Below are positions 37,677 through 60,766 of a stretch of 64,000 bases of DNA, in pieces. The notes under the pieces were generated by a model, which worked only from the letters and a program-made list of their open reading frames with translations, made no database searches and had not been told where the DNA came from. A program made the position numbers and the translations under genes. This stretch comes from an uncultured Bacteroidales bacterium (GTDB taxonomy: Bacteria > Bacteroidota > Bacteroidia > Bacteroidales > WCHB1-69), in the NCBI GenBank assembly GCA_900315245.1, contig OMYJ01000015.1, positions 41,442 through 105,441 on the forward strand, written 5' to 3'. Each line of letters opens with the position of its first letter. Position 1 is the stretch's first letter.

Positions 37677-37998
37677 GTTGCGGCATGTTTGCTGTTTTGA
37701 TTTTGGTGCTGCGGCGGCGCACGGTCAAACCGGCATCCTGAATCTTGCGGCCGAGCACATCATCCTTGGCAAGGAGCAAGAGATCGTTATGGAGTCCCAA
37801 CACTATGAGTACGCGAAAATAGGAGCCCAAGGAGACACCTTCGTCGCCGTGTTCGATCTTGATGACGGTGTTGCGTGAAATGCCGGCTCTTTCGGCCACC
37901 TGTTCCGTGGAATAGTCACGGCGCAGTCTCGCCAATCGGATATTTTCCCCCAAAGTGTCCAGCATTCTCTTATATTTGGGCAAAAGCGGTCTTTTCAT
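37669..37998 (-). CDS. XRE HTH antitoxin (HipB-like)
   Basis: LGENIRLARLRR...VAERAGISRNTVIKIEHG; overlaps the hipA start. Confidence 0.85.
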   Translation of the reverse strand: MKRPLLPKYKRMLDTLGENIRLARLRRDYSTEQVAERAGISRNTVIKIEHGDEGVSLGSYFRVLIVLGLHNDLLLLAKDDVLGRKIQDAGLTVRRRSTKIKTANMPQHE

Positions 37999-38150
37999 GA
38001 TCCTTCTTTTATAATGTTCAAAATAATGCGCAAAAATACAAAATTTTGTTGAATATTATGCACGTTATTTGTTTTATTTAAGACAGGCAAATGGATGGTT
38101 CCATCAATATGCTTTTATTTGCCAATGGATGCTCTATGCAACAATGATGG

Positions 38151-39802: not shown

Positions 39803-39968
39803 GACGGTTTGTTTTATAACGGCTGCAAAGATACACAATTTTCTTCGATTACGCAAAATGCGTAACGCAAAATGTGTAAAATGTTTTTTGGCAAATCTAC
39901 TCCTCGAAACTCATCAGCCCGCCGATGATTTTTTCCTTTTACCGCCTATTCTTATCCCTCAAACTCAC

Positions 39969-40037
39969 CTATATTCCCGCCAGCGGATACCCCCAATCAC
40001 TCTCCATCTCCCGCAAGATTTCGCGGAAGACGGCGGG
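39969..40037 (-). pseudogene. 3' stump of ADP-ribosylglycohydrolase gene
   Basis: Translates to PAVFREILREMESDWGYPLAGI*, similar to PETFRKILQEMKGRFRYPLGDL* of 55489..56298. Confidence 0.55.
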
Positions 40038-40095
40038 TGGGCGGGGACGGTGGGGGCTACTGTGGTGTCTCTTTGAGACGCTCAGTTTCTACCAT

Positions 40096-40431: not shown

Positions 40432-40941
40432 TTATTGATTCCCTTTAACAATCCCCGCAATCTTCCCATCCATCCTGTTCAGGAACTCCCCGAACGGTAT
40501 GTTTGGGTCCGCGTGTTCCAGTTTCTCCTGATAATCAACCATATGGAAGTGGTCCACCACGTTCCCGAACCAGGAGTCCTCAATGATGGGAGACTTTTGC
40601 CCAGATGCGGGCGGCAGCACCTTGATGACGTGGACGGTAAGGCCTTTGTGATGGTTTTTGCACCATGTCAGGTTGACTCCGACGGCCAAACATTTCAAAT
40701 ATAATGCCGAGTATCCTCCTTTCGGGGAGATGATCATTTTGCCGGGCGAGTCCCACACCAGCAGCCACACCTCCAACGGCGGGTCGTAGTCGCCGTCCTC
40801 CTGACAGTACAGATATTGCTGCACGAAATCTTGGTCTGACATCCATTCTGTGGTGATGTCATCCGCGAAATGTGCCAGAACGCCTCTTTTACATTGTTCG
40901 GCGTTGAAGCCGATGGGGATGATAATGGTTTTGGTGGTCAT
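40432..40941 (-). CDS. Hypothetical protein
   Basis: ATG 20 nt below the boxed promoter; no family recognised. Confidence 0.6.
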   Translation of the reverse strand: MTTKTIIIPIGFNAEQCKRGVLAHFADDITTEWMSDQDFVQQYLYCQEDGDYDPPLEVWLLVWDSPGKMIISPKGGYSALYLKCLAVGVNLTWCKNHHKGLTVHVIKVLPPASGQKSPIIEDSWFGNVVDHFHMVDYQEKLEHADPNIPFGEFLNRMDGKIAGIVKGNQ

Positions 40942-40960
40942 AATCTTTGTTGTTTTTGAT

Positions 40961-40998
40961 GCGGCAAAGATAACACGGGACTGTGCCAATTCGTGGCA
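40961..40998 (-). promoter_or_regulatory. -7 promoter + palindromic operator (copy 1)
   Basis: Plus strand: GCGGCAAAGATAACACGGGACTG TGCCA ATTCG TGGCA. Confidence 0.75.
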
Positions 40999-41128
40999 TT
41001 GTGGTGCCCGCAGACCTACGGCCTGCCTGTGAAAGTGAACAGTGAATAGTGATCAGTGAACAGGGACTTTACGCGACAAGGCGCCCTGTCAGGAGTGCAG
41101 GGGGAGGGTATGAAAAGGGTTAAGGGTT

Positions 41129-41371
41129 TCACCCCGCGGAAAACCGCAAGGGGGATTTCCTGCTACCATTGCCGCCATACAAGATGGTAATCGGGGCGAA
41201 ATCCAGAGACTCGAGGCAGTGGTCTGACAGAACGCCAAAGGGGTAATTGCCCAAGACGTCCTTGTGGAAACAGGATTCCTCCAAAGAGGCCGGATCATAA
41301 TGGTAATAGTCAATCAGGACCTTGTCCTCTTGTTCAAAAGTGGGGAATTTGAATGATTCGAGATAGATCAT
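41129..41371 (-). pseudogene. 5' stump of a predicted ABC-type ATPase (COG3910-like), broken at Walker A
   Basis: MIYLESF...YPF..L....LDFAPITILYGGNGS then runs into a repeat element. Confidence 0.65.
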
Positions 41372-41416
41372 ATGGGGGGATTGGAGGTGGAGAAGAGGGA
41401 AAGAGAAAAATGGAGA

Positions 41417-42031
41417 TTATTCGCAAATCTTGTTTTGACAATTGTCGCAACACTTTTTGTCCGATTCTTCAGGATACGCTTGAGTGATGAGGCAATCGAG
41501 GTAGTGGAACAACTTTTGGATATCTATTTTCCTTGATTCATTTAAACAATTGACAACTTCAAAGTAATTGGTGTTCGCTGATGTGTCTCCACCATTTTCT
41601 TTTTTGATTTTTGGGCTCTCCAAGTTTTCAGTTATCAAGCAGATAGTGTTATTCCCAAAGTACCTGAATAAATGATTTTTATACATCATATCTGTCCACA
41701 ATCCACGATAATACACCTGTCCATATATCTCTATTTTTTCATCTCCCCAAGCTTGAGGAACGCATACTTCTATTTCGCTGATTTTGCTGACGACATTGTT
41801 AAATTTGTTTCTCACGACGTTTCCAACTTGAAATACATACCCGTTATTAGGTTCACTTTCCCTTCTTTCATATGTAGTCAACACATTAGGGCAATTAGGC
41901 CAATCTAATAACCAGACATCATTCGTTTTGATTGATTCTAAAATATTCTTAAGGTCTGTACATAAAACTAAATCTATCTTATTATTAGCCATATAGTTAT
42001 TTTTATTTTCTAAAAATGTTTTCTTCATCAC
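41417..42031 (-). CDS. Hypothetical protein (AT-rich)
   Basis: 204-codon open frame; start may be 41992 (MANNK). Confidence 0.5.
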   Translation of the reverse strand: MMKKTFLENKNNYMANNKIDLVLCTDLKNILESIKTNDVWLLDWPNCPNVLTTYERRESEPNNGYVFQVGNVVRNKFNNVVSKISEIEVCVPQAWGDEKIEIYGQVYYRGLWTDMMYKNHLFRYFGNNTICLITENLESPKIKKENGGDTSANTNYFEVVNCLNESRKIDIQKLFHYLDCLITQAYPEESDKKCCDNCQNKICE

Positions 42032-42064
42032 AAAATTGTAACTTATTCAAAGTGATTATTTTAT

Positions 42065-42292
42065 CTACACCGCCCCAAGCTTTGCATTTTCGTCCTTTTC
42101 AATCATCTCAATGCACTTTTCGATGTCGGTGATAATTCCTTTCATAAAGTCGATTTTCTCCTTTTTTGTGTAGCCTTGTACGGTAAATGGAAACTTGGAT
42201 GTGTCAAATTGATATGCTAGGAGTTCGCGGATGGAAAATTCTATTATTTCATCGTTTAAAAAGGCGAATAAATCATCATTAAAGCCATTCAT
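42065..42292 (-). CDS. Small acidic hypothetical protein (paralogue of 51572..51787)
   Basis: EFSIRELL...EKIDFMKGIITDIEKCIE versus EFTIGELI...EKIGFLKELIADIEECIE. Confidence 0.6.
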   Translation of the reverse strand: MNGFNDDLFAFLNDEIIEFSIRELLAYQFDTSKFPFTVQGYTKKEKIDFMKGIITDIEKCIEMIEKDENAKLGAV

Positions 42293-42302
42293 AAATATTT
42301 CT

Positions 42303-42331
42303 CTGGTACGTGTCGGGCGCAACTGTTGGTG
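42303..42331 (-). promoter_or_regulatory. Conserved 29-nt 5' leader (copy 1, promoter-less)
   Basis: Sense CACCAACAGTTGCGCCCGACACGTACCAG, 10 nt above the ATG. Confidence 0.6.
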
Positions 42332-42352
42332 TTCCCTATTTTACGAAACTTA

Positions 42353-43426
42353 CTATGGTAGCTCTTTTCGCATTTCCTCTAATTTGTTGATTCTATTGAG
42401 GATGATGTCGCCAATATCTGTGTGTTTGTGGAGGTAATCACCAAGAAGGCGGCCTACCACGTCGTTAACATAGTCGTGAATGGTCTGCCCTTCGGGCTGC
42501 ATCATTTCAGAACCGAGGCGGGTTTGCGCTCCTGTTTCATAAAGTGGTTCTTGCACCTTGATAGAGATGACGGCAGAAACAGCGTTGCAGATATCGTCTG
42601 TTTCATACCACTTGCCGAAATAAGTGCGGATTGTCATGGCCAATGCGTTGCGGAAGGCATTTTGGTGTGTGCCACCTCGCGGCGTATAATGTTTGTTGAC
42701 AAAAGAATAAAATTCCTCTCCACAATTTCGAGTGGTGTGAGTGAATACAAACTCAAACTTTTCGTCTTGAAGGTGAATCGGCGCGTAAAGCATCTCCTCC
42801 CGTTTCGTCTTATGGCAAAGGAGGTCGTACAAACCGTTCTTGGAAAGGATCTTCTGTCCATTGTAGTTGATGGCGAAACCTTTGTTTAAGCAAGCATAGT
42901 TCCGCAATGTGTTGGCAATGCGCTGTGACAACCACTGGTATTTACCGAGAAGGCTGTCATCGAGTGTGAAGGAGATGGAAGTGCCGGAACGCTGGTTGCT
43001 TACTTCTACGGAGGATTCTCCGATGAGCTTACCGTAGGAAAACTCGACCGTCTTCGTCTTCCCGTCCCGGAAACTCTGTATCTTGAAGTGGCTTGATAGG
43101 GCGTTGGTTAGCATGAGAGCCCAACAACCTTCATTTGGGTTTAAATTTGTCACACGGCACATCAGCTTATCAAATGGCATACCACATCCATAGTCGCGCA
43201 CGTTCACTACATTGTCTTTGATGGTCACATCGATGTTTTGGCTATGTCCCTGTTCGGATTGTTCAACAGAGTTGTTAATTACCGCTTTCAAAAGTTCATG
43301 GATAGCATCATTTCGTGAGTCGCTATCTCCTATTCGCCTGCCAAGGAAAAAACCAGGGCGTGAGCGGACATGCTCATACCAGATTGTCCTGATGTCGTCA
43401 TCATTGTTTTTGTCACGTTTTTCCAT
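42353..43426 (-). CDS. Truncated, degenerate ParE/GyrB N-terminal (GHKL + transducer) homologue
   Basis: EHVRSRPG, VRDYG.G.P, NALS, SFVN..YT..GGTH..AFR and SIKVQEP; ends at RKEL before TOPRIM. Confidence 0.8.
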   Translation of the reverse strand: MEKRDKNNDDDIRTIWYEHVRSRPGFFLGRRIGDSDSRNDAIHELLKAVINNSVEQSEQGHSQNIDVTIKDNVVNVRDYGCGMPFDKLMCRVTNLNPNEGCWALMLTNALSSHFKIQSFRDGKTKTVEFSYGKLIGESSVEVSNQRSGTSISFTLDDSLLGKYQWLSQRIANTLRNYACLNKGFAINYNGQKILSKNGLYDLLCHKTKREEMLYAPIHLQDEKFEFVFTHTTRNCGEEFYSFVNKHYTPRGGTHQNAFRNALAMTIRTYFGKWYETDDICNAVSAVISIKVQEPLYETGAQTRLGSEMMQPEGQTIHDYVNDVVGRLLGDYLHKHTDIGDIILNRINKLEEMRKELP

Positions 43427-43462
43427 AGTTTTGTCGAATTTGATGAATGGATTTAATTTCTG

Positions 43463-43500
43463 GCGGCAAAGATAGTGCGTAACTGTGCCGATTCGTGGCA
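43463..43500 (-). promoter_or_regulatory. -7 promoter + palindromic operator (copy 2)
   Basis: Plus strand: GCGGCAAAGATAGTGCGTAACTG TGCCG ATTCG TGGCA. Confidence 0.75.
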
Positions 43501-43606
43501 TACCCAACCCCGACCGATTCAAAGGCCTGTCCATTGGTAGTGAGCAGTGGGATCTTAAAGCGAAAACACACCGTCAGGGGTGCAGGGCCTGGTAGAATGT
43601 AGTTGT

Positions 43607-43863
43607 TTACGTCTCTGCATTCTCCATGGCTGGCGCATTGCTTTGCCTTATGTGGTGGAGGTGTATCAGTTCGTCGCACATGGCAATTTTTTCTTCCAAA
43701 TCAGTCGGTTTTCCAAATCTTCAATTTCACCTTCACAGTCATACATTCTGACAGACCAGCGTTCCCTGATGGTGATAATTTCTTCGATCCGCTCCTTTAT
43801 GAGGTCGGTCTGTTCCTCAAAGGAGAGGTTTTTCAGGTCTTTTTTGAATTGTATAATGTTCAT
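43607..43863 (-). pseudogene. Small coiled-coil-like ORF, frameshifted relative to the copy at 52680..52874
   Basis: Near-identical DNA to 52680..52874 but with 62 extra nt, so the DLEEKIAMCDELIHL tail is out of frame. Confidence 0.55.
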
Positions 43864-43974
43864 ATTATCGTTTGTTTTGTTTTGCTTTTACTCTGTTGAA
43901 CGCTTTTCGGGAACGCATCTAATGTCTCCAATCCATAACAGTGGCAGAGCTCGTGCTGATGCAGGCGAAAACCT

Positions 43975-44607
43975 CTACCAGTCCGGCTCAAACTCCCAGT
44001 CCACCGGCTTCCCGTTCAGGTCGAAAACCTGGCACGTGTCGCACCCACCAACCTTATAGGCACCCGAGTCCACCAATGTGTTGGGAACATATACTTCTTT
44101 GAGAAGATGGGCTTCCTCAAGGCACCACGTATCAACACCTTTTATACATTTAGGTAGCCTGATGGATGTGAGGCGTTCTGAAAAATACTCTCTCAAGCCC
44201 TCCCCGATATATTCAACAAAAGAATATTCGTCCTCAACGTCAACCATATCGGGTAAGTCAATGTGTCCGGACAGTTGGTGCATCTCCTCACCCCAGAATA
44301 ATTGTACGACATTGTCATAACTGTAGATTTCCAGCGTGTTGTTATGGTTTGCAGCGTAGATGGATCGTTCACTTTTTTCGGAAGGGAAGAATTTTTGGAT
44401 ATAACAGCCCGTGTACGCATCAAGATCCTCGGAAACGTATCGTACACCCAGCAGTTGCTCTTCCGGATAGGGTTGTTCTTTGCCGTTTACGGACAATACC
44501 AAACGGTCGGGCTGCAATTTTGATATGCACCCGCCAATTGTCCCATCTGGAATCTCAATTTCCACAAAGTCCCCGACCTGCAGGTTTTCGTTAATGTACT
44601 TCAACAT
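43975..44607 (-). CDS. Sm/SH3-like barrel + BspA-type LRR hypothetical protein (paralogue A)
   Basis: MLKYINENLQVGD start; LPD.V......V.YIG...LTSIRLP...L.EVYVP LRR_5-like segment. Confidence 0.65.
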   Translation of the reverse strand: MLKYINENLQVGDFVEIEIPDGTIGGCISKLQPDRLVLSVNGKEQPYPEEQLLGVRYVSEDLDAYTGCYIQKFFPSEKSERSIYAANHNNTLEIYSYDNVVQLFWGEEMHQLSGHIDLPDMVDVEDEYSFVEYIGEGLREYFSERLTSIRLPKCIKGVDTWCLEEAHLLKEVYVPNTLVDSGAYKVGGCDTCQVFDLNGKPVDWEFEPDW

Positions 44608-44625
44608 ATCTTTGCTATTTTTAAT

Positions 44626-44663
44626 GCGGCGAAGATAACACGGGACTGTGCCAATCTGTGGCA
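44626..44663 (-). promoter_or_regulatory. -7 promoter + palindromic operator (copy 3)
   Basis: Plus strand: GCGGCGAAGATAACACGGGACTG TGCCA ATCTG TGGCA. Confidence 0.75.
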
Positions 44664-44866
44664 TAGCTGCGATGCCCGCAGACCTACGGCCTGCCAGCGC
44701 ACCGCCAGCTGTCTTTGGGAAACACGTCCCGCCAGCAACAATACCCCGTTAGGGGTGCAGGGCTTGGTAGAATGGGGCGAGCACGGGGGAATGCGCACGC
44801 CGTCAGGTGTGCGGGGAGAGGTGTGGAAAGGAGGTGAGGGGTTCACCCCGTGGAAAACCGCGAGGA

Positions 44867-44908
44867 GGATTTCCCGCTGCCGTTGCCGCCATACAGGATG
44901 GTGATGGG
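44867..44908 (-). pseudogene. Walker A stump of the COG3910-like ATPase
   Basis: Translates to PITILYGGNGSGKS, followed by the same repeat junction as at about 41150. Confidence 0.55.
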
Positions 44909-44961
44909 GGGTGACATCCAAGTAATGGACAAAGGAAGAAATCGGTGTGCCGAATATTTGC

Positions 44962-47133
44962 TTATAATATGTCAATGAGCTTTTTTATGATATCGATTAT
45001 TGTTTCCTTATCCATGTCGGTTTTTTCGTATCGTTCCCCGTTCCACTGGAGTTTAAATACAGAGGGTAAATCTCCAAATGTGTTTTCTGTATGACCTTTA
45101 CGCCGGAAAAGATTGATAGAATATTTGTCATCGCCTGTGTGCCAAGCAGCAATTGCCCAACCAGAATGTGCTTTGTTTTCATCAATGACGGCACATGTGT
45201 TATCGTATGAATAAAACCTTAGATCTTTGTCAGGGAGAAGAATTATCTTTTTTAGTTCCAGATATAATCTATAAGATTTCAAATTCGCATGTTCACCACT
45301 TGCTCTATCTCCCTTAATTAATGTCCAACCCAAATCATCTCCCCACCACTGAATCTTTTTCTGTTCACAATATTTGAGTAGTTCGGGTATCTCTACAAAC
45401 TCATCGAAATCTTTTCCCGAAGAATTGTTCTTAATCATTTGGTATTGGGCTGCGTAGATGTCATTAATATCCAATTCATCCAAAAATGATTTGAATTTAT
45501 CAACATTATCATTTATAAGCGCCTTCCAGTCTTCATAATCCCAAGCAAAACTCCAATTAGTGTACCCCTTAAATTTTCTGGGATAATCCTTCAAATCGCG
45601 AGTCAGCAAAGCCCTGCGGGTTACATCAAGTTCCTCATATTCCAAATCATCATGGAACACTTTATCAAATTTGACACGATAAATTTTGAATAAATTATAA
45701 TCAAACTCGCCATCTGTTATTGCCCATTCAATCATAGGAAGTATTTCTCCACACCATAATTTATATCCTTCTTCCTTCCAGAAAGACTCTTCTATTTCAT
45801 CTCGATTTTCTGCATTTCGGTAGATTTCTAATTTTGTTTTCGTTTCTTCAGTCAGTAAGGACTTTTTTACACTTTCTAATTCTAAAATCGAACATATGTC
45901 TGCATTGGGCATTTTTTTGATAACTCTGATTGCCTCGGGCAAAACCTCGGATATTGCTTTTGTTACATTTGGTACAAGTGCAAGATTCCTAAAAAACATC
46001 TTTACCCGCCTTATTTTTCTAACTGTCGCATTAGGAAATCGATTGATGTACTCAAGCACTGGCAAAAAACTGAACCATACAACCTGCGAGTTGCCATCTA
46101 TATCAGGAAATAACCAATTTTTATTATTGGGGAATACTGCATCTTTCTCACAAAACAAACGTTTAGAAACAATCTCAAAATAGTTATCTATTTTATCAAA
46201 TTCAATGTTCTCTAAATCAAACTTGTATGTTCCATCTTTCTGAATTCGCTTGAATTCATTGCTTTCTGCATCTAAATTTAACAACATTATCCATCGGAAG
46301 AATTCTTTTAATCCATTGTCGGCTGTATCATTCGTGCCTCTGTTCTTCCAAAAGAATTGTTCCCATTGTTCCCATTTTTGAGCACATTCATCTTGCTTCT
46401 CCTTTGCTTGTCGACCAATGAGTAATGGTTTTAAGTTCTGTGTTGCCGACAATGGCTCACCAGTAGTATTGATAACAACAAATGTTTCTTCTCCTTTTGT
46501 ACGATTTTCCATGTCATAATAAAGGAATGAGAGGTTTTCGATAATATATTTCCCAAACGATGCACAATCAATACTTTTCTCATTGATTATAGTTTCAATC
46601 ATTTCCATTGCCGCAATCATACTCTGAATGCTTGGATCTAAATCGTAATCTTTGAAGTACCACGACTGCCGTTTGATATCAGAAACAGCAATATCCTTGT
46701 TTTCAATGAAAAAGAATCTGGTCAAGTCACTTAAAAAATAAAGCGAACTTTCTCTTATGGCATATTGCAAATAAGGTTCCCAATCGTCATTCTCTTCTGT
46801 TTCAGAAATCAACAAACGCCTGAAAGCATCGTCGGCTTTCCTGTTGAGCATTCCGAGTAGCAAAAACAATGTCGTGATTCGCTGTTGTCCATCGCAAAGC
46901 TGAATGTGTCCAAGTGGAGCTTCGTAGCCGTATAAAAGCCCCAAATTCAGTTCTTTGTCTTGATTATCGGTAATGTTTTCGATAAATCTTTCAACAAGAT
47001 TTTTGCCATCTTTATCAAATGTTGTTCCCCAGCAATAATCCCGTTGCAAATCAGGTATGATGATTTTGTCGTCTTTCGAAAACAAATCTGTCAGTTTGTA
47101 GGCTTCTCCTGTTGATAACTTATTGTATTCCAT
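44962..47133 (-). CDS. DUF262 (GmrS/ParB-Srx-like) domain protein
   Basis: IPDLQRDYCW, CDGQQRITTL and FVVINTTGEPLS. Confidence 0.8.
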   Translation of the reverse strand: MEYNKLSTGEAYKLTDLFSKDDKIIIPDLQRDYCWGTTFDKDGKNLVERFIENITDNQDKELNLGLLYGYEAPLGHIQLCDGQQRITTLFLLLGMLNRKADDAFRRLLISETEENDDWEPYLQYAIRESSLYFLSDLTRFFFIENKDIAVSDIKRQSWYFKDYDLDPSIQSMIAAMEMIETIINEKSIDCASFGKYIIENLSFLYYDMENRTKGEETFVVINTTGEPLSATQNLKPLLIGRQAKEKQDECAQKWEQWEQFFWKNRGTNDTADNGLKEFFRWIMLLNLDAESNEFKRIQKDGTYKFDLENIEFDKIDNYFEIVSKRLFCEKDAVFPNNKNWLFPDIDGNSQVVWFSFLPVLEYINRFPNATVRKIRRVKMFFRNLALVPNVTKAISEVLPEAIRVIKKMPNADICSILELESVKKSLLTEETKTKLEIYRNAENRDEIEESFWKEEGYKLWCGEILPMIEWAITDGEFDYNLFKIYRVKFDKVFHDDLEYEELDVTRRALLTRDLKDYPRKFKGYTNWSFAWDYEDWKALINDNVDKFKSFLDELDINDIYAAQYQMIKNNSSGKDFDEFVEIPELLKYCEQKKIQWWGDDLGWTLIKGDRASGEHANLKSYRLYLELKKIILLPDKDLRFYSYDNTCAVIDENKAHSGWAIAAWHTGDDKYSINLFRRKGHTENTFGDLPSVFKLQWNGERYEKTDMDKETIIDIIKKLIDIL

Positions 47134-48841
47134 AATATTCTTTAATTTCGTTGATGAATTTATTTTTGTTTTCTATAATTTCATTGATGCTCCACTCTTT
47201 TTTTGCAAAGACGGAAATGGTGTGCAACAGATGACGGCTTCTGAAAGGCTTTTCTGCATCAACATTGAAATAAATTGATTTTTTGTCATCAAAAGATTTC
47301 GCTCCAAATCCAGAGTTCTCGTTTTTATATAGCAACACAAGATTGCCTATACAATGTTCATTGCCATTCCCTTCAAAATTGGCTTCGTCAATTAGTCCTT
47401 CTGTGTCTAATTCTTCAATTTCAACACCATCACCTCTAATGTATCTATTCCCCTCATCGATGGTTTCAATTTTATAGAACTTTGATTTTGGATAGATATG
47501 TTCCAAAGATCTTTCCTTCCAAATACTGAAATCAAATTTTCTGCCCAATTTGGAATCTTCCTCAATATTTCGTCTCAACAACTGCATAAAAGCATAAGAA
47601 TTATCTTCATTGTATAGATTGTTACTACACAAGGATTTATACATTTCGCCTTTAGCATTTTCAATAGCTTCACTGTTGTTTTCTACAATTATTGTATGCG
47701 AAAGACCTAGAAAAACAAGCTTGAAGTACTCTTCAATGTCTTTTTCTTCGTTAGTAGCAAAGTACCATTCTACAAAACGTTCTCTGTCTTCCTTTCCGTG
47801 TAAAGTAAGTATCGCTCCTATTTTGTTGTGAAGCTTGTTGGAATCGCTGATGCTATTGAACACATCTTCAAATTTTTTCTGCAAATGGCGCAAATCGTAA
47901 AAAACATTTTTTGCCAACTTTTCGTTATTGTCGCCACGCAACAATTTATCTCTAAAAACTTCAAAATATTTACCTCCCTTATCAATTTTGCCTCCTTTTG
48001 ATTTAAGATACGTCTTTACGAGAAGGCCCATAACACTTTTCTCTGTATGATAAAAAGTTGCTACTTCTGGTTGATTCCACCAGTAAAGCCATTTGTCCCA
48101 TTCCCGCGCATATTTGCTACGTAAAAGGTTCTGTTCCCAATGAACGGATTCAACCTCTTTGACTTTATGAAAAATGGATTCCAACAATTCATTGCTGGAA
48201 ATATTATTAAAGCTAAATGTATTCTCCGCAGAAACCAAACGTAACATTTCGGCTTTTATGATTTCCTCTGTTTTCATATCAGCCTTGCTGCCATTCATCA
48301 TAGAGAAAACCAAAGTGGCTTTGTCTTCAGGAATGGTAATGTATAAGAACTTTACATTGTCAAGTATTTTGTTAATATCCCAATCCTTTGCTTTGTCAAT
48401 AATTAATCTGACACTCTTTTTAAAATAATATATGTCTTGAAACTCTTCTTGTTGATTATCAGCGCACAAATCCTTTAACTCTTCGTTGGTTTTCCCCCTT
48501 AAAGATTTGAGAAATTCATCCGATTTAGTCCTAACGGGATAATTCAAATTAATATCACCTTGATACCCCAAACAGGTTAACAACAAATAGAAGAATGTGG
48601 TTCTTTGCTGTCCGTCAATGAGAATTATTTCCTTTTCATTTTCTGTAACAGTAATACCTTGCATGAACAATTCGGTATCGTTATCCAAACTGTTTTGAAT
48701 GCTTTCCAAAACATATTCAACGGAATTTTTTTCCGAATCTCTTGATTTTCCCCAAATGTATCCACGCTGATAATTGGGGATGACAAAAACTTTCTGCTTA
48801 TCTAAGAATTGTCTGAGTGTTATTGTCGCATTTTTACTCAT
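47120..48841 (-). CDS. DUF262 + DUF1524 (HNH) GmrSD-like restriction endonuclease
   Basis: IPNYQRGYIW, IDGQQR, FSMMNG; SLEHIYPK and IGNLVLL...NS.FG.KSF..KK. Confidence 0.8.
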   Translation of the reverse strand: MSKNATITLRQFLDKQKVFVIPNYQRGYIWGKSRDSEKNSVEYVLESIQNSLDNDTELFMQGITVTENEKEIILIDGQQRTTFFYLLLTCLGYQGDINLNYPVRTKSDEFLKSLRGKTNEELKDLCADNQQEEFQDIYYFKKSVRLIIDKAKDWDINKILDNVKFLYITIPEDKATLVFSMMNGSKADMKTEEIIKAEMLRLVSAENTFSFNNISSNELLESIFHKVKEVESVHWEQNLLRSKYAREWDKWLYWWNQPEVATFYHTEKSVMGLLVKTYLKSKGGKIDKGGKYFEVFRDKLLRGDNNEKLAKNVFYDLRHLQKKFEDVFNSISDSNKLHNKIGAILTLHGKEDRERFVEWYFATNEEKDIEEYFKLVFLGLSHTIIVENNSEAIENAKGEMYKSLCSNNLYNEDNSYAFMQLLRRNIEEDSKLGRKFDFSIWKERSLEHIYPKSKFYKIETIDEGNRYIRGDGVEIEELDTEGLIDEANFEGNGNEHCIGNLVLLYKNENSGFGAKSFDDKKSIYFNVDAEKPFRSRHLLHTISVFAKKEWSINEIIENKNKFINEIKEYYGIQ

Positions 48842-48927
48842 ATTTTAAATTTTATATAACTCAAAGCGTTTTACTTACTTAATTGATCTTTCTGCCGAAG
48901 TCCATTAAACAGAATCCGAAGAAAACG

Positions 48928-48944
48928 ACCCCGCAAAACTACAA
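48928..48944 (-). promoter_or_regulatory. Second-class promoter element (copy 1)
   Basis: ACCCCGCAAAACTACAA = sense TTG-TAGTTTTG-CGGGGT (TAnnTTTG), identical at 51544 and 55445. Confidence 0.6.
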
Positions 48945-48971
48945 TTTTCCCCTTTCCCCTCCACCTCTTTC

Positions 48972-49156
48972 CTAAAATCTCCCAACGTCCCCCCGAGCCT
49001 TCCCCTCATCTCCCGCAATATCTCGCGGAAGGTCTCCGGCAGGCGTTGCCACATCTCCTTTACGATCTCTTCGGGGATCTCCTTGTAGTGCGCTTCGGCG
49101 AGGCCGCCGGTGATGCAGGCGAGCGTGTCGCTGTCGCCGCCGAGCGAGACGGCCAA
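48972..49156 (-). pseudogene. 3' stump of ADP-ribosylglycohydrolase gene
   Basis: LAVSLGGDSDTLACITGGLAEAHYKEIPEEI...LPETFREILREM, near-identical to the C-terminus of 55489..56298. Confidence 0.8.
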
Positions 49157-49370
49157 GTGGACGGCGGGGCGGTGTCGCCGAAGCCTGCTCTTGTGAGACG
49201 GGGATTCCGCTCGCTCACTGCGTTCGCGGCGGAATGGTGCGCTGCCGAAGGAGTCCAAAGGGAAAAGATGGGCGGCGGGAGGCTGGGGACAACTGCGTCT
49301 CGCAGTTGTTGACATACATCTGCGGGGACGCAGATGCCTCCATGGCCGCCCATCTTGTGCGCGGCGTTCA

Positions 49371-49655
49371 TCAGCCGTTCCTTTTCTTTCCTACCTTGTC
49401 CCAATGGTCCTCGAATCGATTCATGGTGGCTTCTCCGAAACCGTTGCTTTTAACATCCTCCTTGAAATTCCGGATTTTCCTGCGGAATTTCCGGATGGCA
49501 ACGAGTATCGGAATTCCGAAGAAGATAAAAACGATTACAATCACGAAGATATTTTCGGCCAACGTGTTGGATGGCGCTTTTGTGGTTTCTGCATACGCGG
49601 CGAGATTGCCGATGCCTAACAAAATCGCCAGAACAATGTTTTTAATATTTTTCAT
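49371..49655 (-). CDS. Small membrane protein
   Basis: Signal-like N-terminus plus one TM segment followed by a basic cluster (RKFRRK). Confidence 0.55.
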   Translation of the reverse strand: MKNIKNIVLAILLGIGNLAAYAETTKAPSNTLAENIFVIVIVFIFFGIPILVAIRKFRRKIRNFKEDVKSNGFGEATMNRFEDHWDKVGKKRNG

Positions 49656-49682
49656 AATACTGATATTTTTTGATGAAACATG

Positions 49683-49916
49683 TTAACTTCTTCTGATCCA
49701 GGATTCTCCGTTGTTAGAGGAGAAGAACAACCCGTTTTCGGTGGTGGCAATCAGTTCGGTGCCGTTGACTACTAAGTCGAGAAACTCGCCTGTGTTGGCG
49801 GCTCCTGCACAGCGGGTCATCCAGGAGCCGCCGTTGTTGGTGGAGACATCCAGTCTCTGTTTGTTCTTGGGGCAGATGCGGATCATCTCCCCGTCTTTGA
49901 CAATCAATTGTGGCAT
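49683..49916 (-). CDS. 77-aa Asp-box/BNR-like repeat protein
   Basis: Two S.NNG.SW motifs (STNNGGSW, SSNNGESW); ATG just below the leader. Confidence 0.65.
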   Translation of the reverse strand: MPQLIVKDGEMIRICPKNKQRLDVSTNNGGSWMTRCAGAANTGEFLDLVVNGTELIATTENGLFFSSNNGESWIRRS

Positions 49917-49927
49917 AATCCATAACC

Positions 49928-50006
49928 CTGGTACGTGTCGGGCGCAACTGTTGGTGAATACTAAAGTTGCGGCAAAGATAAATCCCGACTGTGCGAGTGC
50001 GTGGCA
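49928..50006 (-). promoter_or_regulatory. 29-nt leader (49928-49956) + -7 promoter/operator (49969-50006; operator copy 4)
   Basis: Plus strand: GCGGCAAAGATAAATCCCGACTG TGCGA GTGCG TGGCA. Confidence 0.7.
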
Positions 50007-50292
50007 TAACCAGCCCCGGCAGACCCAAAGGCCTGCCAATTGGCAAGTGATCAGTGAACAGTGAAGAGTGTGATAAGTGATCAGTGGGATCTTAAAGCGA
50101 AAACACCCCGTTAGGGGTGCAGGGCTTGGTAGAATGAGGCGAGCACGGGGGGCGCACGCCGTAGGTGTGCGGGGAGAAAAGGATTAAGGGTTTCACTCCG
50201 AGAAAAACGCAAGGTTCAATAGCAGAGGTTTAGTGGGAGGAGTCGGAGATGAGGGAGGTATGAGAGTTTAAGTCGCATAACCCAATAAATTT

Positions 50293-51489
50293 CTAAAGAC
50301 AATTTTGTTCTTTAGAAATGAATTCTATACATTTTTCCACGATATTCTTAAAGCATCTAATAACCTCAATGTGATTGTTATACTCGGCTGGAGAACCAAA
50401 ATATGTCCAAACACCTGTATGGTTGTGACTTTTGAGCAGGTTAGAAGATAAATATTTGCCAAGAGGAGTGTTTTGGAAATCTTTCCACTCTTCTTGTGCA
50501 ACGCTATTATAGTCATATTGAACTTGGCAATACAATTTACTATCTTGTGCAATAACAACTGTAATCATTTTGTTGTTATAAGGTAGAGAAAGAGCGGCAT
50601 AACATTTATTCTCTTCGGAAACATCATTAACAATGTTGTTTTTTAACAATTCTTCTTTTGTTTGATTGAGGACTTTTGAAATGTAATTTCTTGCAAGATT
50701 GTCTGTGGTTAGTTGTATTGTTTTTATCGTATTTGTTAGATTCGATAGCGCTTCTATACACTCTAGTTCATTTTTGTTTGTTTCTAAATCAAGGTGATTC
50801 TTAATGGTTTTTTCCAGATTCATATTCATTGACTTTTGAATGGTTCGTAATAAAAATAATCCTTCAAGGTAATCGATATATTGTTGTATCGCGCTTTGTA
50901 GAAAACAATCTTTAAGACGAACTGACGGCAAAACACTTCCTTTTAACCAGGGCAATATGTCGTTCTTGAAAGAAAGATTCACATATCTATTAGTAAACTC
51001 GTTTTCGTATTCTCCCCATGTTTGATGGTCAGGTTCTTTTCCATCGGATGAAAGATATATGATATAAATGTCTTGTTTTTTATAAGATTGTTTGTTAGTT
51101 TTTTCGATATATCTGAACAATTGAGCATCTTGATCAGCAGCATTATATATTTTATTCTCAAAAATGATTGCGTATCCAGTATCTCTAACCCACAAATCAA
51201 TTCGTTCTTCTTCTTGCGTGATTCTCGGATTTTTAATTGTAATATTTGAAAATCCGCAATCATCTTTACCATTACGCCAAATGATGTAGTTGAGGAGTGA
51301 CTGAAAGATTTCATATTCACCTTTCTCGTTGACAAAACTTAACAATCGGAAAAGAATTCTGCTGTGCCCATTTTCATTGATATGCAATTCATCTATAAGG
51401 TTGATGTGGTAAGGCATCCGGAGTTTTTCCGCCTCATACTGACGACTGAACTTATCAATAAAATTTAATAGTTCATTATATTGGTTCAT
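50293..51489 (-). CDS. PD-(D/E)XK nuclease family protein (PDDEXK_4-like)
   Basis: ENGHSRIL..LL, RIDLW....AIIFENKI..A.DQ..QL.RY. Confidence 0.8.
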   Translation of the reverse strand: MNQYNELLNFIDKFSRQYEAEKLRMPYHINLIDELHINENGHSRILFRLLSFVNEKGEYEIFQSLLNYIIWRNGKDDCGFSNITIKNPRITQEEERIDLWVRDTGYAIIFENKIYNAADQDAQLFRYIEKTNKQSYKKQDIYIIYLSSDGKEPDHQTWGEYENEFTNRYVNLSFKNDILPWLKGSVLPSVRLKDCFLQSAIQQYIDYLEGLFLLRTIQKSMNMNLEKTIKNHLDLETNKNELECIEALSNLTNTIKTIQLTTDNLARNYISKVLNQTKEELLKNNIVNDVSEENKCYAALSLPYNNKMITVVIAQDSKLYCQVQYDYNSVAQEEWKDFQNTPLGKYLSSNLLKSHNHTGVWTYFGSPAEYNNHIEVIRCFKNIVEKCIEFISKEQNCL

Positions 51490-51543
51490 TTGATTTGTAA
51501 TTTTTCAGTCTTTAATTCTGATGAAAAAAATAACGATTTTTTT

Positions 51544-51560
51544 ACCCCGCAAAACTACAA
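51544..51560 (-). promoter_or_regulatory. Second-class promoter element (copy 2)
   Basis: ACCCCGCAAAACTACAA, 54 nt above the nuclease ATG. Confidence 0.6.
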
Positions 51561-51571
51561 AAATATCCCTT

Positions 51572-51787
51572 TCACCCTTCAATAAATTCCTCCTCTTTCT
51601 CCACCCTTTCAATGCACTCCTCGATGTCGGCGATCAGTTCTTTCAAGAATCCTATTTTCTCGGACTTGTTTGGGAAATTTTCGGGGTGTGCTTCAAATTC
51701 ACTCTCGATCAGTTCACCAATTGTGAACTCCCATCCTAAATCTTCCTCATTTGGGGCAACATAAAAATAATAATCGTTCATATTCAT
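51572..51787 (-). CDS. Small acidic hypothetical protein (paralogue of 42065..42292)
   Basis: ATG directly below the leader; shared C-terminal helix motif. Confidence 0.6.
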   Translation of the reverse strand: MNMNDYYFYVAPNEEDLGWEFTIGELIESEFEAHPENFPNKSEKIGFLKELIADIEECIERVEKEEEFIEG

Positions 51788-51792
51788 TATCC

Positions 51793-51871
51793 CTGGTACG
51801 TGTCGGGCGCAACTTTTGGTGAATACTAATGATGCGGCAAAGGTAAATCCCGACTGTGCCAGTGCGTGGCA
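51793..51871 (-). promoter_or_regulatory. 29-nt leader (51793-51821) + -7 promoter/operator (51834-51871; operator copy 5)
   Basis: Plus strand: GCGGCAAAGGTAAATCCCGACTG TGCCA GTGCG TGGCA. Confidence 0.75.
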
Positions 51872-51879
51872 GAGTATGA

Positions 51880-52509
51880 TCAATACCAATCCTTCTCCAG
51901 TTCCCAATTGAGTAGTTGCCCTTGCATATCGCGCAGCTCGCAGCAGGTGCAGCCGCCAACCTTGTAACTGCCGAGATCTTGGACTGTCGAGGGCAGATAA
52001 ACGGCTTCCAGTCGGTTGCAATCCTTAAATGCATAAACCTCAACATTTTTCGTAAAAAAAGGAAGCTTGACGGATTTGATAGTGTTTGGGAAAGGGCCCC
52101 ATAAACCAACACCCTCAACAGCATATAGTATCTCATCATATTCCACCCAATCGGGTAAAAGCAGATCTTCCCCCAGTTCGTTGGTATTATCTGTGGGATT
52201 CACAGACAAGACTCCATCAAAAAAATCGAAGTATAGCCTTTGATTATAATCTAATCCGAAAAATGAATCCGGATGTTTTTCGTATGGGTAGACCTTCGTG
52301 AGATATAGAGGGAACAGACAGATGTCATCATCCTCGATGTATTGCAATCCGGTGATGTCATCTTCAGCAAACCGGACGGTTCTCCCCTCGCAAGACAATG
52401 CCAAATTCTCATCGTCCAGTTCCGTAACAACACCCTGACAAACTCCGGCTTTTGATTCTACAGTGATATAGTCCCCGACCTGCAGGTTCTCGTTAATGTA
52501 CTTCAACAT
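51880..52509 (-). CDS. Sm/SH3-like barrel + BspA-type LRR hypothetical protein (paralogue B)
   Basis: MLKYINENLQVGD start; IKSVKLP..TKNVEVYAFKDCNRLEAVYLPSTV LRR_5-like segment; YKVGGC..C. Confidence 0.65.
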   Translation of the reverse strand: MLKYINENLQVGDYITVESKAGVCQGVVTELDDENLALSCEGRTVRFAEDDITGLQYIEDDDICLFPLYLTKVYPYEKHPDSFFGLDYNQRLYFDFFDGVLSVNPTDNTNELGEDLLLPDWVEYDEILYAVEGVGLWGPFPNTIKSVKLPFFTKNVEVYAFKDCNRLEAVYLPSTVQDLGSYKVGGCTCCELRDMQGQLLNWELEKDWY

Positions 52510-52527
52510 ATCTTTGTCGTTTTTGAT

Positions 52528-52565
52528 GCGGCAAAGATAGTGCGGGAGTGTGCCGATTCGTGGCA
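52528..52565 (-). promoter_or_regulatory. -7 promoter + palindromic operator (copy 6)
   Basis: Plus strand: GCGGCAAAGATAGTGCGGGAGTG TGCCG ATTCG TGGCA. Confidence 0.75.
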
Positions 52566-52679
52566 TTGTGGTGCCCGCAGACCTACGGCCTGCCAGCGCA
52601 CCGCCAGCTGTAATTGGGAAGCATGACCCGCCGGCCGCCGCACCCGTCAGGGGTGCAGGGTTTGGTGGAATGTAGCTGT

Positions 52680-52874
52680 TTACGTCTCTGCATTCTCCAT
52701 GGCTGGCGCATTGCTTTGCCTTATGTGGTGGAGGTGTATCAGTTCGTCGCACATGGCAATTTTTTCTTCCAAATCCCTGATGGTGATAATTTCGTCGATC
52801 CGCTCCTTTATGATGTCGGTCTGTTCCTCAAAGGAGAGGTTTTTCAGGTCTTTTTTGAATTGTAAAATATTCAT
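52680..52874 (-). CDS. 64-aa coiled-coil-like hypothetical protein
   Basis: Intact frame; duplicate at 43607..43863. Confidence 0.5.
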   Translation of the reverse strand: MNILQFKKDLKNLSFEEQTDIIKERIDEIITIRDLEEKIAMCDELIHLHHIRQSNAPAMENAET

Positions 52875-52950
52875 ATTATCGTTTGTTTTGCTTTTACTCT
52901 CTGTTGAACGCTTTTCTGTGGCGAGGTCTGATGTTAAGGCAAAATTCCAT

Positions 52951-53007
52951 CAAGGCCTTGTCCTCTTGTTCAAAAGTGGGGAATTTGAATGATTCGAGAT
53001 AGATCAT
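52951..53007 (-). pseudogene. Extreme 5' stump of the COG3910-like ATPase
   Basis: MIYLESFKFPTFEQEDKAL, near-identical DNA to 41315-41371. Confidence 0.7.
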
Positions 53008-53021
53008 AGTCGTTTGTTTTT

Positions 53022-53059
53022 GCGGCAAAGATAACACGGGACTGTGCCAATCTGTGGCA
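53022..53059 (-). promoter_or_regulatory. -7 promoter + palindromic operator (copy 7)
   Basis: Plus strand: GCGGCAAAGATAACACGGGACTG TGCCA ATCTG TGGCA. Confidence 0.75.
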
Positions 53060-53189
53060 TAGCCGCGATGCCCGGCAGACCTACGGCTTGTCAGCAGAAA
53101 GTGAATAGTGATCAGTGAAATTTACGCGCGACAAGGCACGCCGTCAGGTGTGCGGGGAAAGGGATTTGTGAATTACATCGATAGAAACA

Positions 53190-55444: not shown

Positions 55445-55461
55445 ACCCCGCAAAACTACAA
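55445..55461 (-). promoter_or_regulatory. Second-class promoter element (copy 3)
   Basis: ACCCCGCAAAACTACAA upstream of the nuclease fusion gene. Confidence 0.6.
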
Positions 55462-55488
55462 CTTTTCCCTTTCCCCTCCACCTCCTTC

Positions 55489-56298
55489 CTACAAATCTCC
55501 CAACGGATACCTGAACCTCCCCTTCATCTCCTGCAATATCTTGCGGAAGGTTTCCGGGAGGCGGGACCACATTTGGCGGGCGATCTCTTCGGGGATTTCT
55601 TTGTAGTAGGCTTCGGCGATGCCGCCGGTGATGCAGGCGAGGGTGTCGCTGTCGCCGCCGAGCGAGACGGCCAGGCGGATGGCACTCTCGAAATCCGTGC
55701 TGTCGAGGAAGGCGATGATGGCTTCCGGCACCGTGCCCTGACAACTCTCCTGAAACGTGTACCCGGGACGGATCTCCTCGCAGGTGCGGCTCAGGTCGTA
55801 GCCGAAACGCGTTTCCACATACTCCTTGATCTCCGCTTTGGTCTTGCCGGTCCTGCCCAGGAAGATGGCTGCGGCCACGGCCTGCGCCCCCTTGATGCCC
55901 TCCGGGTGGTCGTGGGTGATGGCGGCCGAGATCTCCGCCACCCGCAAGGTCTCCTCCAGCGTGCCGAACGCCCGGCCCACGGCACTCACCCGCATCGCCG
56001 AGCCGTTGCCCCATGAGTTGTAGGGCACTCGCTCGCGCCCGCTGAACAGCCACCGGTAGAACGACCCGCCGTAGCCGCCGAGGGGGTTGGGATATTCGTG
56101 TGCAAAGCGCACCATCGAGGCCTCCAACTCCTTGTGGGTGTGGTGCTCGTCGCGCAACAGCCAGTCGGCCACCGCAAAACTCATAATGGAATCATCAGTG
56201 AATTCACTTCTCTCCGAAAACAGAGGGAAATCGGTAGTCTTGATGTTGTCGAATTCGTATATCGATCCGACGGTGTCTCCTATTATTGCTCCTAACAT
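55489..56298 (-). CDS. ADP-ribosylglycohydrolase (DraG/ARH family)
   Basis: GAIIGDTVGS, FTDDS, GNGSAMR, THDHPEG and GGDSDT. Confidence 0.9.
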   Translation of the reverse strand: MLGAIIGDTVGSIYEFDNIKTTDFPLFSERSEFTDDSIMSFAVADWLLRDEHHTHKELEASMVRFAHEYPNPLGGYGGSFYRWLFSGRERVPYNSWGNGSAMRVSAVGRAFGTLEETLRVAEISAAITHDHPEGIKGAQAVAAAIFLGRTGKTKAEIKEYVETRFGYDLSRTCEEIRPGYTFQESCQGTVPEAIIAFLDSTDFESAIRLAVSLGGDSDTLACITGGIAEAYYKEIPEEIARQMWSRLPETFRKILQEMKGRFRYPLGDL

Positions 56299-58851: not shown

Positions 58852-58855
58852 AACC

Positions 58856-58934: not shown

Positions 58935-58936
58935 CT

Positions 58937-58964: not shown

Positions 58965-58975
58965 ATGCCACGTCC

Positions 58976-60748: not shown

Positions 60749-60766
60749 AATTACATTAATTTTGAC

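Follow-up and report, generated by a model that had tools for sequence, protein, structure and literature searches.

A candidate WYL-regulated, hypervariable defence island with repeated operator-bearing junctions in an uncultured rumen Bacteroidales bacterium

We analysed a 64,000-nucleotide stretch of DNA (hereafter the window; contig C6, positions 41442 to 105441) from an uncultured rumen Bacteroidales bacterium, whose genome (3.05 Mb) is a metagenome-type assembly of 21 contigs. The window contains an island of defence and repair genes separated by repeated intergenic junctions, and our subject is these junctions, the boxed promoter (the box) that most of them carry, and a gene for a WYL-domain transcription factor at the edge of the island. 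An earlier note on this DNA had described six junctions and had interpreted the locus as an integron-like stack of cassettes. We compared the window with related genomes (identifiers beginning with G) and with fetched metagenome or island loci (identifiers beginning with L; 0.89 Mb of island loci in total); C denotes contigs of the genome itself. What we say below on protein binding, on activation or repression, on where transcription starts and ends, and on the route of recombination is all inferred from the sequence.

Gene content and layout of the island

Between approximately 35.3 and 61.8 kb, essentially all genes lie on the minus strand, and many of them are related to defence or repair. 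They encode HipA, a DEDDh exonuclease (PADLOC PDC-S48), a PLD nuclease together with an ATPase_2 protein, a GyrB-like fragment, two GmrSD type IV restriction proteins, two PD-(D/E)XK nucleases (PDC-S26), an ADP-ribosylglycohydrolase (ARH), RtcB, and an IetA/TRIP13-like AAA ATPase. The G+C content is 34 to 38% in the GmrSD, PD-(D/E)XK, and u227 blocks and 45 to 53% elsewhere. The products u185, u107, u204, u227, u232, LRR229, u161, and u354 and those of the small open reading frames (ORFs) had no match in Pfam, NCBIfam, or PADLOC. One edge of the island is a divergent WYL/AAA gene pair, often followed by u232 and ARH; the other consists of u185-u107, ATPase2-PLD, and the DEDDh exonuclease, beyond which lie core genes (i.e., those for a TonB receptor and ligA). 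The region is probably the variable central part of a defence and damage-response island that is specific to the genus and occupies a fixed chromosomal site. Its principal units are as follows.

56508 to 57788, minus strand: RtcB RNA ligase cassette, whose neighbours differ in almost every genome
57797 to 57831, minus strand: remnant of the RtcB box promoter, which retains the -7 box but has the 3' end of u232 in place of the operator (the full box is found here in relatives)
50293 to 51489, minus strand: PD-(D/E)XK nuclease (PADLOC PDC-S26), a low-G+C cassette
44962 to 48841, minus strand: GmrSD-type type IV restriction pair (34 to 36% G+C), an inserted cassette without the box
42353 to 43426, minus strand: gene for a GyrB/ParE-like ATPase fragment, headed by a box promoter (Pfam DNA_gyraseB and HATPase_c)

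The operator-promoter and the WYL gene

Read on the minus strand, the box is TGCCAC-N4-TGGCAC-N10-TATCTTTGCCGC. This 38-nt pattern has eight matches in the 3.05-Mb genome, all eight of them in the island and co-oriented on the minus strand, while a reversed control of the pattern had no match in 61 genomes. Such a count greatly exceeds what chance would produce. Allowing at most one mismatch, we found the box in 17 of the 36 other congeneric genomes (1 to 5 copies each, on one contig and co-oriented) and in none of 24 genomes that represent other families of the order. When 185,579 species genomes were scanned, 30 stretches with the box were obtained, 29 of which are from metagenome-assembled genomes (MAGs) of rumen or ruminant Bacteroidales (Bacteroidetes); the remaining stretch belongs to a contig assigned to Erysipelotrichaceae (RUG087), perhaps wrongly. 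Another 47 box stretches were obtained from a metagenome scan.

Positions left free by the search pattern are conserved as well (ACTA ahead of TGCCA; A, then G/C, then T/C after TGGCAC). On the basis of this conservation outside the pattern, the full element is a 23-bp dyad, ACTRTGCCA-N5-TGGCACAGT, the right arm of which stops 7 bp short of the -7 element TATCTTTGCCGC. The promoters of the window have the Bacteroidetes form of the -7 element (TAnnTTTG), and on our interpretation transcription at every junction would start 7 to 10 nt after TATCTTTG. The genome contains 347 other promoters of the same -7 type (i.e., housekeeping promoters), which have an A-tract and TG upstream; YNGCAC occupies the place of the operator in only 2 of the 347. 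With a dyad at the -33 place and an ordinary -7 element, the island promoters thus form a distinct class, in which the dyad operator would replace the A-rich upstream region of housekeeping promoters at a fixed 7 bp from the -7 element.

Phylogenetic footprinting showed that u185, LRR229, and RtcB keep the box despite at least four unrelated upstream contexts. Altogether, 113 distinct box instances head at least 20 protein families, including a DnaB_C-like ATPase, a KaiC/RecA-like ATPase, the intact AAA_21/AAA_15 ATPase (313 to 314 aa), a YgjP-like metallopeptidase, RtcB, the DEDDh exonuclease, the GyrB-like protein, the DUF6140 family, and many unannotated proteins. The island would be a co-oriented stack of independent transcription units, with every class A unit opening with the specialised promoter.

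The divergent pair at the island edge has the following features.

60914 to 61831, plus strand: WYL-WCX transcription factor (305 aa; Pfam WYL and WCX), the candidate island regulator
60850 to 60891, plus strand: promoter of the WYL gene, ACTCTGCCA-N5-TTTCATACC, 7 nt, and TATCTTTGCCGC, read directly
58976 to 60862, minus strand: AAA+ ATPase (IetA/TRIP13-like; Pfam AAA; PADLOC IetA), a conserved head gene divergent from the WYL gene
60767 to 60808, minus strand: promoter of that ATPase gene (AAA628), with the dyad ACTGTGC-N9-GCACAGT, 7 nt, and TATTTTTGCAGC, in the same register as the box

The earlier note spoke of a boxed promoter and missed that this box is a putative dyad operator, also present in the flanking WYL gene's own promoter. 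Within the latter, ACTGTGCCAY-N4-TTTCAC is invariant, with identical spacing, in 11 genomes, including those with orthologues of 58 to 61% identity. Among these 11 is G031, in which the WYL gene lies directly beside the exonuclease gene, with no array and no AAA gene. WYL orthologues occur at the island edge in at least 12 congeners. The best full-length match of the AlphaFold model of the WYL protein (predicted local distance difference test score, 78.5) was DriD, followed by PafBC, CapW, and BrxR, and a profile search matched PafBC, DriD, and CapW. All four are proteins with a winged helix-turn-helix (wHTH), WYL, and WCX arrangement, and the PDB entries of DriD and CapW show bound single-stranded DNA (ssDNA). 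The genome also encodes two WYL paralogues with 36 to 37% identity (C10:295001-295891 and C14:207168-208073), and in the promoter of the C10 paralogue the motif TGCCAC-N4-AAGCAC stands one helical turn farther upstream of TATCTTTGCCGC.

The operators R-BOX1 and R-BOX2 of BrxR were shown experimentally to have 9-bp arms and a 5-bp spacer and to tolerate one degenerate arm (PMC9122601). The degenerate copies of the box in the WYL and AAA promoters, as putative operators, fit this BrxR/DriD type. As in loci of the BrxR/CapW/DriD/PafBC type, a wHTH-WYL-WCX protein is encoded at the island edge next to defence genes, and a palindrome with a 5-bp spacer, one arm of which may degenerate, is present as a sequence element in the regulator's promoter and recurs ahead of neighbouring defence genes. 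The BrxR-type locus of pEFER likewise contains GmrSD-type restriction within the same island. In contrast to BrxR-type loci, the operator here is located at a fixed distance from the -7 box, where it covers the -33 region in a promoter of the Bacteroidetes type. Moreover, it is found in at least 10 promoters per island, with more than 100 copies across the genus and at least 20 gene families, whereas the BrxR islands known so far contain one box or two. We predict that a WYL-WCX dimer binds the dyad. A single signal would thereby reach all units together with the regulator's own gene and that of the AAA protein; by analogy, the signal may be ssDNA or damage during phage attack. Since the best structural matches are activators, activation by the WYL protein would be as plausible as repression.

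Alternatively, the box might be an element of an alternative sigma factor, such as the -24 element of sigma-54, and the island a sigma-factor regulon. TGGCAC corresponds to the sigma-54 -24 hexamer, rpoN is present in the genome, and a downstream GC is semiconserved (G in 83% and C in 76% of the instances; both in 59 of 95, i.e., 62%). The sigma-54 dependence of E. coli rtcBA also counts for this explanation. However, the spacing is GG-N9-GC, one base below the obligatory GG-N10-GC, and the left arm completes a dyad for which a sigma element has no need. An ordinary -7 box is also kept in a fixed register, and the island proteins that were scanned include no Sigma54_activat domain, so that neither half of a sigma-54 promoter arrangement (i.e., GG-N10-GC and a nearby bacterial enhancer-binding protein) was found. 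The sigma-54 reading of TGGCAC was rejected on the GG-N9-GC spacing and the dyad symmetry, despite the presence of rpoN, and we consider a sigma-factor regulon very unlikely.

Junction modules and their repeats

A blastn search and a motif map recovered the repeat families in all six of the junctions first described, which are indeed built of common parts. We identified two further boxed junctions (51834-51871 and 58897-58934), and the remnant ahead of RtcB (57797-57831) is what is left of a ninth. The modules, as placed by the motif map, are listed below.

40961-40998, 43463-43500, 44626-44663, 49969-50006, 52528-52565, 53022-53059, 51834-51871, and 58897-58934, minus strand: boxed promoter (m6)
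41010-41026, 44678-44694, 50018-50036, 52577-52593, and 53074-53091: GCAGACC-TAC-GGCCTGC hairpin (m5, or H1)
41033-41060, 50045-50065, and 53099-53119: heptamers (m4)
43571-43599, 44746-44774, 50108-50136, and 52644-52672: CACCCC..GGGGTG hairpin with CAGGGCTTGGTAGAATG (m3, or H3)
41080-41098, 44795-44812, 50154-50170, and 53136-53153: CACGCC..GGTGTG hairpin (m2, or H2)
41124-41142, 44838-44856, and 50188-50206: GGGTTTCACCCCG..GAAAA (m1)

On the transcribed strand, the order is an ATPase Walker A fragment, m1 (TTTTCCGCGGGGTGAAACCC), H2, H3 with CATTCTACCA, heptamers, H1, the box with its -7 element, and an optional leader. Each junction is a collinear subset of one template of approximately 330 bp, and the junctions are 75 to 97% alike. 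J4 is the most complete of them, carrying all of these parts, and the others are deletion variants.

58852 to 58975, minus strand: J8, with a genome-wide 30-nt palindrome, the box (58897-58934), and a leader (58856-58876)
53009 to 53189, minus strand: J7, with H2, heptamers, H1, and the box (53022-53059)
52510 to 52679, minus strand: J6, with H3, H1, and the box (52528-52565)
51782 to 51879, minus strand: J5, with the box (51834-51871) and a leader, and no REP hairpins
49917 to 50292, minus strand: J4, with m1, H2, H3, heptamers, H1, the box (49969-50006), and a leader (49928-49948)
44626 to 44961, minus strand: J3, with the ATPase Walker A fragment (44876-44893), m1, H2, H3, H1, and the box (44626-44663)
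43427 to 43665, minus strand: J2, with H3, a degenerate hairpin, and the box (43463-43500)
40942 to 41160, minus strand: J1, with m1, an H2-like hairpin, heptamers, H1, and the box (40961-40998)

Thus, the view of the junctions as shuffled mosaics is correct as to the sharing of parts and incorrect as to their permutation, since the motif map revealed a fixed order in which only the presence or absence of modules varies. Given this constant order, the mosaic is a single ancestral intergenic region of approximately 330 bp that was copied repeatedly and differentially eroded. The sequence upstream of each operator would be the 3' region of the preceding unit, comprising hairpins of the repetitive extragenic palindromic (REP) type, a heptamer microsatellite, and broken-gene remnants.

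The REP character of the hairpins, proposed in the earlier note, was supported by a genome search for a REP-associated tyrosine transposase (RAYT) gene flanked by them. H1 (GCAGACC-loop-GGCCTGC, which carries a conserved mismatch), H3, and H2 are present at only about 10 other loci of the genome. A composite H1-H3-H2, in the same order, was found on each side of a Y1_Tnp (RAYT) gene carried by a different contig (C12:241827-242285), and a third composite lies 2 kb upstream. The hairpins are interspersed, extragenic, and multicopy (14 H1 and 11 H2 over 6 to 7 contigs), although low in copy number compared with classical REPs. The island holds 4 of the 14 H1 pattern matches and 3 of the 11 H2 sites, where 0.1 to 0.2 would be expected. 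Scans of the window with Rfam (at gathering thresholds) and for tRNAs gave no match, and the hairpins are therefore neither a known RNA family nor a tRNA-derived att site. As in the REPs and bacterial interspersed mosaic elements (BIMEs) of E. coli and Pseudomonas, short imperfect GC-rich hairpins form mosaics at gene 3' ends, a hairpin family flanks a single-copy Y1 (HUH) transposase gene, and several RAYT/REP families coexist in a genome. Unlike REPs and BIMEs, those described here occupy about 10 loci, with one third of the copies in one island, apparently coduplicated with the junctions. The genome has four mutually divergent RAYT/IS200-like Y1 genes, each flanked by its own repeat family (C12:241827-242285, C16:153521-154225, C20:26063-26530, and C14:81177-81719).

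These observations raise the possibility that the C12 RAYT cuts and joins the junction hairpins and thereby moves REP-bounded cassettes. The composites flanking its gene, the existence of four divergent RAYTs with their own repeats, and the enrichment of H1 and H2 in the island all speak for such a process. To our knowledge, RAYTs spread REPs and not genes. The composite keeps one order and orientation relative to the genes and appears to have been copied along with the junctions, the cassette boundaries are the operator and the stop codons rather than the hairpins, and several junctions lack any REP. For these reasons, cassette movement driven by RAYT is very unlikely, at about the level of a sigma-factor regulon.

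The heptamers, (AGTGAWC)n, form a microsatellite that is spread through the genome (177 dimer matches, 5 of which are in the island). At a permissive threshold of Tandem Repeats Finder, the genome as a whole has far more short tandem repeats with a period of 6 (1597 arrays) or 7 (1170 arrays) than with a period of 5 or 8, and several different heptamer arrays lie immediately upstream of housekeeping promoters. The palindrome of J8 (28 to 30 nt; GTAGAGACGTGCCRTGGCGCGTCTCTAC; 58935-58966) occurs at about 45 other sites on most contigs and is REP-like and distinct from H1 to H3. At two junctions (in J4, at 50120-50103), H3 together with the TTTTCGCTTT behind it has the score of an intrinsic terminator on the transcribed strand. 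A generic terminator scan showed no enrichment, with 20 terminators found and 20.1 expected in shuffles, and a role of H3 as an intrinsic terminator is therefore only suggestive.

The leader core GTTGCGCCCGACACGWAYCAGGG (42311-42331, 49928-49948, 51793-51813, and 58856-58876, minus strand) is situated 8 to 12 nt ahead of the start codon. It was found in 20 distinct instances before at least seven unrelated families of small ORFs, at times without an upstream box promoter, and has no Rfam match.

A second class of junction was recognised by alignment.

48930 to 49167, 55445 to 55690, and, in degenerate form, 39930 to 40046, minus strand: duplicated ARH 3' end with a G-rich TTGTAGTTTTGCGGGG promoter

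Junctions of this class precede the PD-(D/E)XK gene of 460 aa, the GmrSD pair, and the ATPase_2-PLD unit; ahead of PDX398 (51530-51570), the junction is reduced to its promoter part. ARH 3' fragments also occur in G033 (three in a row) and G019 (two).

Cassette turnover and its possible mechanisms

The co-oriented, cassette-like stack seen in the earlier note proved to vary in content and order between related genomes: a comparison across MAGs, as that note had advised, revealed that the middle of the island and its gene order differ in all nine relatives. Within the window, the reported occurrence of the same genes in a different order was reproduced, with LRR229 followed by sm65 at 44625-43666 and sm64 followed by LRR210 at 52874-51880. 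The small-ORF segments of the two blocks are 96 to 97% identical at the DNA level, while LRR229 and LRR210, which are old paralogues, have approximately 33 to 35% amino acid identity. The two small-ORF copies (43666-43863 and 52680-52874) differ by an indel of approximately 60 nt; relatives encode a 110-aa protein, and both copies in the window appear to be internally deleted or frameshifted versions.

The RtcB gene illustrates the turnover. It is preceded by u232 in the window and L066, by the GyrB-like gene in G033, L062, L065, and L075, by sm70 in G019, by LRR229-sm in G021, and by a PLD gene in G003. Blocks of homology begin at the box and end just past stop codons. The promoter variant AGATTGGCACAGTCCCGTGT heads both LRR229 (at 44663) and an ATPase fragment (at 53059), and LRR229 has four different promoter variants in other genomes. 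RtcB is 99.8% identical to its G003 counterpart in amino acid sequence (86.5% for the WYL protein), and its DNA is 99 to 100% identical to that of G029 (88% for WYL). That cassettes are far closer than the neighbouring regulator indicates recent exchange. The GyrB-like promoter-gene unit is also present in G033 and in four metagenome contigs.

The inserts are flanked by duplicated stretches of homology. Three 5' fragments of an AAA_21 ATPase gene (41129-41371, approximately 44876-44920, and 52940-53008) are found in the window, while relatives have the intact gene (313 to 314 aa), and three ARH 3' ends with the TTGTAGTTTTGCGGGG promoter (55445-55690, 48930-49167, and 39930-40046) precede low-G+C or nuclease units. 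Two of the ATPase fragments are joined to other sequences.

41129 to 41371, minus strand: truncated AAA_21 ATPase gene (80 codons), ending just after Walker A and joined to m1; 87% identical to the intact 5' end in G019
52940 to 53008, minus strand: first approximately 23 AAA_21 codons fused to the region upstream of sm64; the same fusion is in G033 (92.8% identity)

A truncated copy of 71 aa is also present in the metagenome locus L098. The ARH and ATPase duplications may be the trace of single-crossover (Campbell-type) integration of a circle with one homology copy.

The repeated junctions and gene fragments could in principle have arisen from assembly or binning, given that the 21 contigs come from a metagenome-type assembly and that repeats classically give rise to chimeric joins. 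The repeats, however, are at most 330 bp long and 75 to 97% identical, so they were not collapsed, and joints specific to the window recur in independent assemblies of other samples (L066, G033, L098, and L073). For example, the u232-RtcB joint is shared with L066 at 97.9% identity and the ATPase-fragment::sm64 joint with G033 at 92.8%. Furthermore, more than 30 kb of flanking sequence shows collinearity with G019. An artefact is therefore the least probable of all the explanations considered, to a degree that makes it nearly negligible.

Some features of individual units deserve mention. The stand-alone GyrB/ParE-like ATPase (42353-43426) has no TOPRIM domain and may act as a decoy or be of an immunity type. 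Direct repeats of 23 nt (57881-57903 and 56390-56412; GGAGATTCCGCCAGACGCTTCGC and GGAGATTCCGCTTGACGCTTTGC; 87% identical) lie on either side of the RtcB unit, and related GGAGATTCCGCC...GGCGGAATGGTG hairpins were observed at 49195-49250 and beside a WYL paralogue (C10:294700-294915). Directly ahead of HipA (36423-37676) lies a short ORF (37676-38010), whose translation includes GENIRLARLRRDYSTEQVAERAGISRNTV and looks HipB/Xre-like; the window and G009 carry both genes, while G003, G019, and G033 have the box-headed DnaB_C-like ATPase instead. A contact-dependent-inhibition immunity gene of the CdiI_3 family (31666-32223; 41% G+C) lies just outside the array, between the TonB receptor gene and ligA.

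Co-oriented cassettes between conserved, hairpin-rich intergenic repeats, in an order that varies between genomes, are also what would be expected of an integron or an rAID system (acquired interbacterial defence associated with a recombinase), in which the hairpins would be attC analogues and a site-specific tyrosine recombinase acting in trans would move the cassettes. The rAID-1 arrays of Bacteroidales have been described in similar terms (10.1101/471110; PMC12247911). As the earlier note had reported for recombinase and RAYT genes in the window, none is present there; the tyrosine recombinases and the C12 RAYT are on other contigs only. A PF00589 search identified two tyrosine recombinases in the genome, both of approximately 295 aa and in ordinary gene neighbourhoods without a downstream co-oriented low-G+C array; on size and context only, both are probably of the Xer type. 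No tyrosine recombinase was found on the island contig of this genome or of the nine relatives, and tblastn detected no Xer homologue in the 0.89 Mb of island loci. A search of the fetched loci for RAYT homologues found none in the island and a single weak RAYT-like match (L071). The defining recombinase of integrons and rAID-1 is therefore absent.

The architecture also differs. The locus lacks an adjacent IntI-type recombinase, and instead of mostly promoterless cassettes expressed from Pc, each unit has its own -7 box promoter. Integron cassettes are expected to be followed by attC sites, which are R''-L''/L'-R' imperfect palindromes of 57 to 141 bp; the hairpins here, by inspection, have short perfect stems of 6 to 7 bp and 3- to 5-nt loops, in tandem, unlike the R''-L''...L'-R' arrangement of attC. 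Junctions without hairpins (e.g., 51782-51879 and the GyrB-like to RtcB boundary in L065) still bound cassettes. Chromosomal integron arrays share with the island their co-oriented cassettes, similar structured repeats between them, and high turnover among relatives, whereas the island has no integrase, no apparent attI/attC architecture, its own regulated promoters, and many units of two or three genes. The similarities to rAID-1 are the Bacteroidales origin, the co-oriented arrays (at least two downstream genes) with conserved intergenic repeats, strain-variable content, and some low-G+C genes. An rAID-1 array is expected to have a XerD-like recombinase (>44% identity to BF9343_RS08045) at its 5' head; the island contigs carry no tyrosine recombinase, and each unit has an operator-bearing promoter. 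In addition, an array G+C content of 41% or less with homology to type VI secretion system (T6SS) immunity proteins was not seen: most genes have the native G+C content and encode nucleases, ATPases, and repair enzymes rather than recognisable T6SS immunity proteins, with no Pfam match to an immunity family in the island units. Thus, the integron-like label applies to the layout and not to a site-specific system, which we regard as very unlikely.

Of the two routes proposed earlier, homologous or REP/HUH-type recombination, we retain the former as the most economical mechanism; the latter is disfavoured by boundaries that lie off the hairpins and by hairpin-free junctions. Because they derive from one template of approximately 330 bp and are 75 to 97% alike, the junctions would serve as portable homology. 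RecA-type recombination between them would delete, duplicate, and reorder units, and units from related species could be integrated from a circle in the Campbell manner or by double crossover, with no dedicated recombinase. We thus consider it reasonably probable that the locus is a hypervariable defence island under the control of WYL, that homologous recombination shuffles it, and that it is integron-like in layout only. Several points weigh against this interpretation. All of the comparison genomes are MAGs, and the co-occurrence of WYL and the box mostly mirrors the presence or absence of the whole island, so that WYL is not singled out among island genes. Breakpoints at the edge between the shared module and the operator are expected under homologous and site-specific models alike. 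The shortest shared homology (approximately 38 bp, i.e., the operator and the -7 box) is close to the minimum that RecA-dependent exchange requires, and the ATPase::m1 joint looks illegitimate rather than homologous.

A more far-reaching and doubtful proposal is that the junction is a dual-purpose docking unit. Its operator-promoter would at once give any captured gene signal-dependent expression, and its 40 to 330 bp, approximately, of conserved sequence would act as a recombination site, possibly aided by the REP hairpins and a RAYT acting in trans, through which cassettes, circular or linear, would be excised, exchanged between species, and reinserted. If this were true, the locus would be a recombinase-less functional analogue of the integron, dedicated to defence genes and genus-wide in rumen Bacteroidales.

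The island is best described as headed by a WYL gene and hypervariable, with units that have in common an operator-promoter module and 3' regions of the REP/BIME type; the known kinds to which it belongs are regulated islands of the BrxR/DriD type and REP/RAYT repeats. If the WYL protein binds the dyad, the island would be a large single-regulator defence regulon in one locus, in which each genome has at least 10 promoters and the genus as a whole more than 100 instances. In that case, the operator-promoter of 38 nt would be a cheap search handle, and the genes that follow it in rumen metagenomes would be candidates for defence, immunity, and damage repair. Most of the at least 20 box-headed families are without annotation (e.g., u185, u227, u232, the DUF6140 family, and ORFs of 47 aa and of 69 to 81 aa). 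Under the favoured interpretation of homologous recombination, the locus would show integron-like modularity gained from promoter and REP homology alone, which bears on the turnover of defence islands in bacteria without obvious mobile-element machinery at the site.

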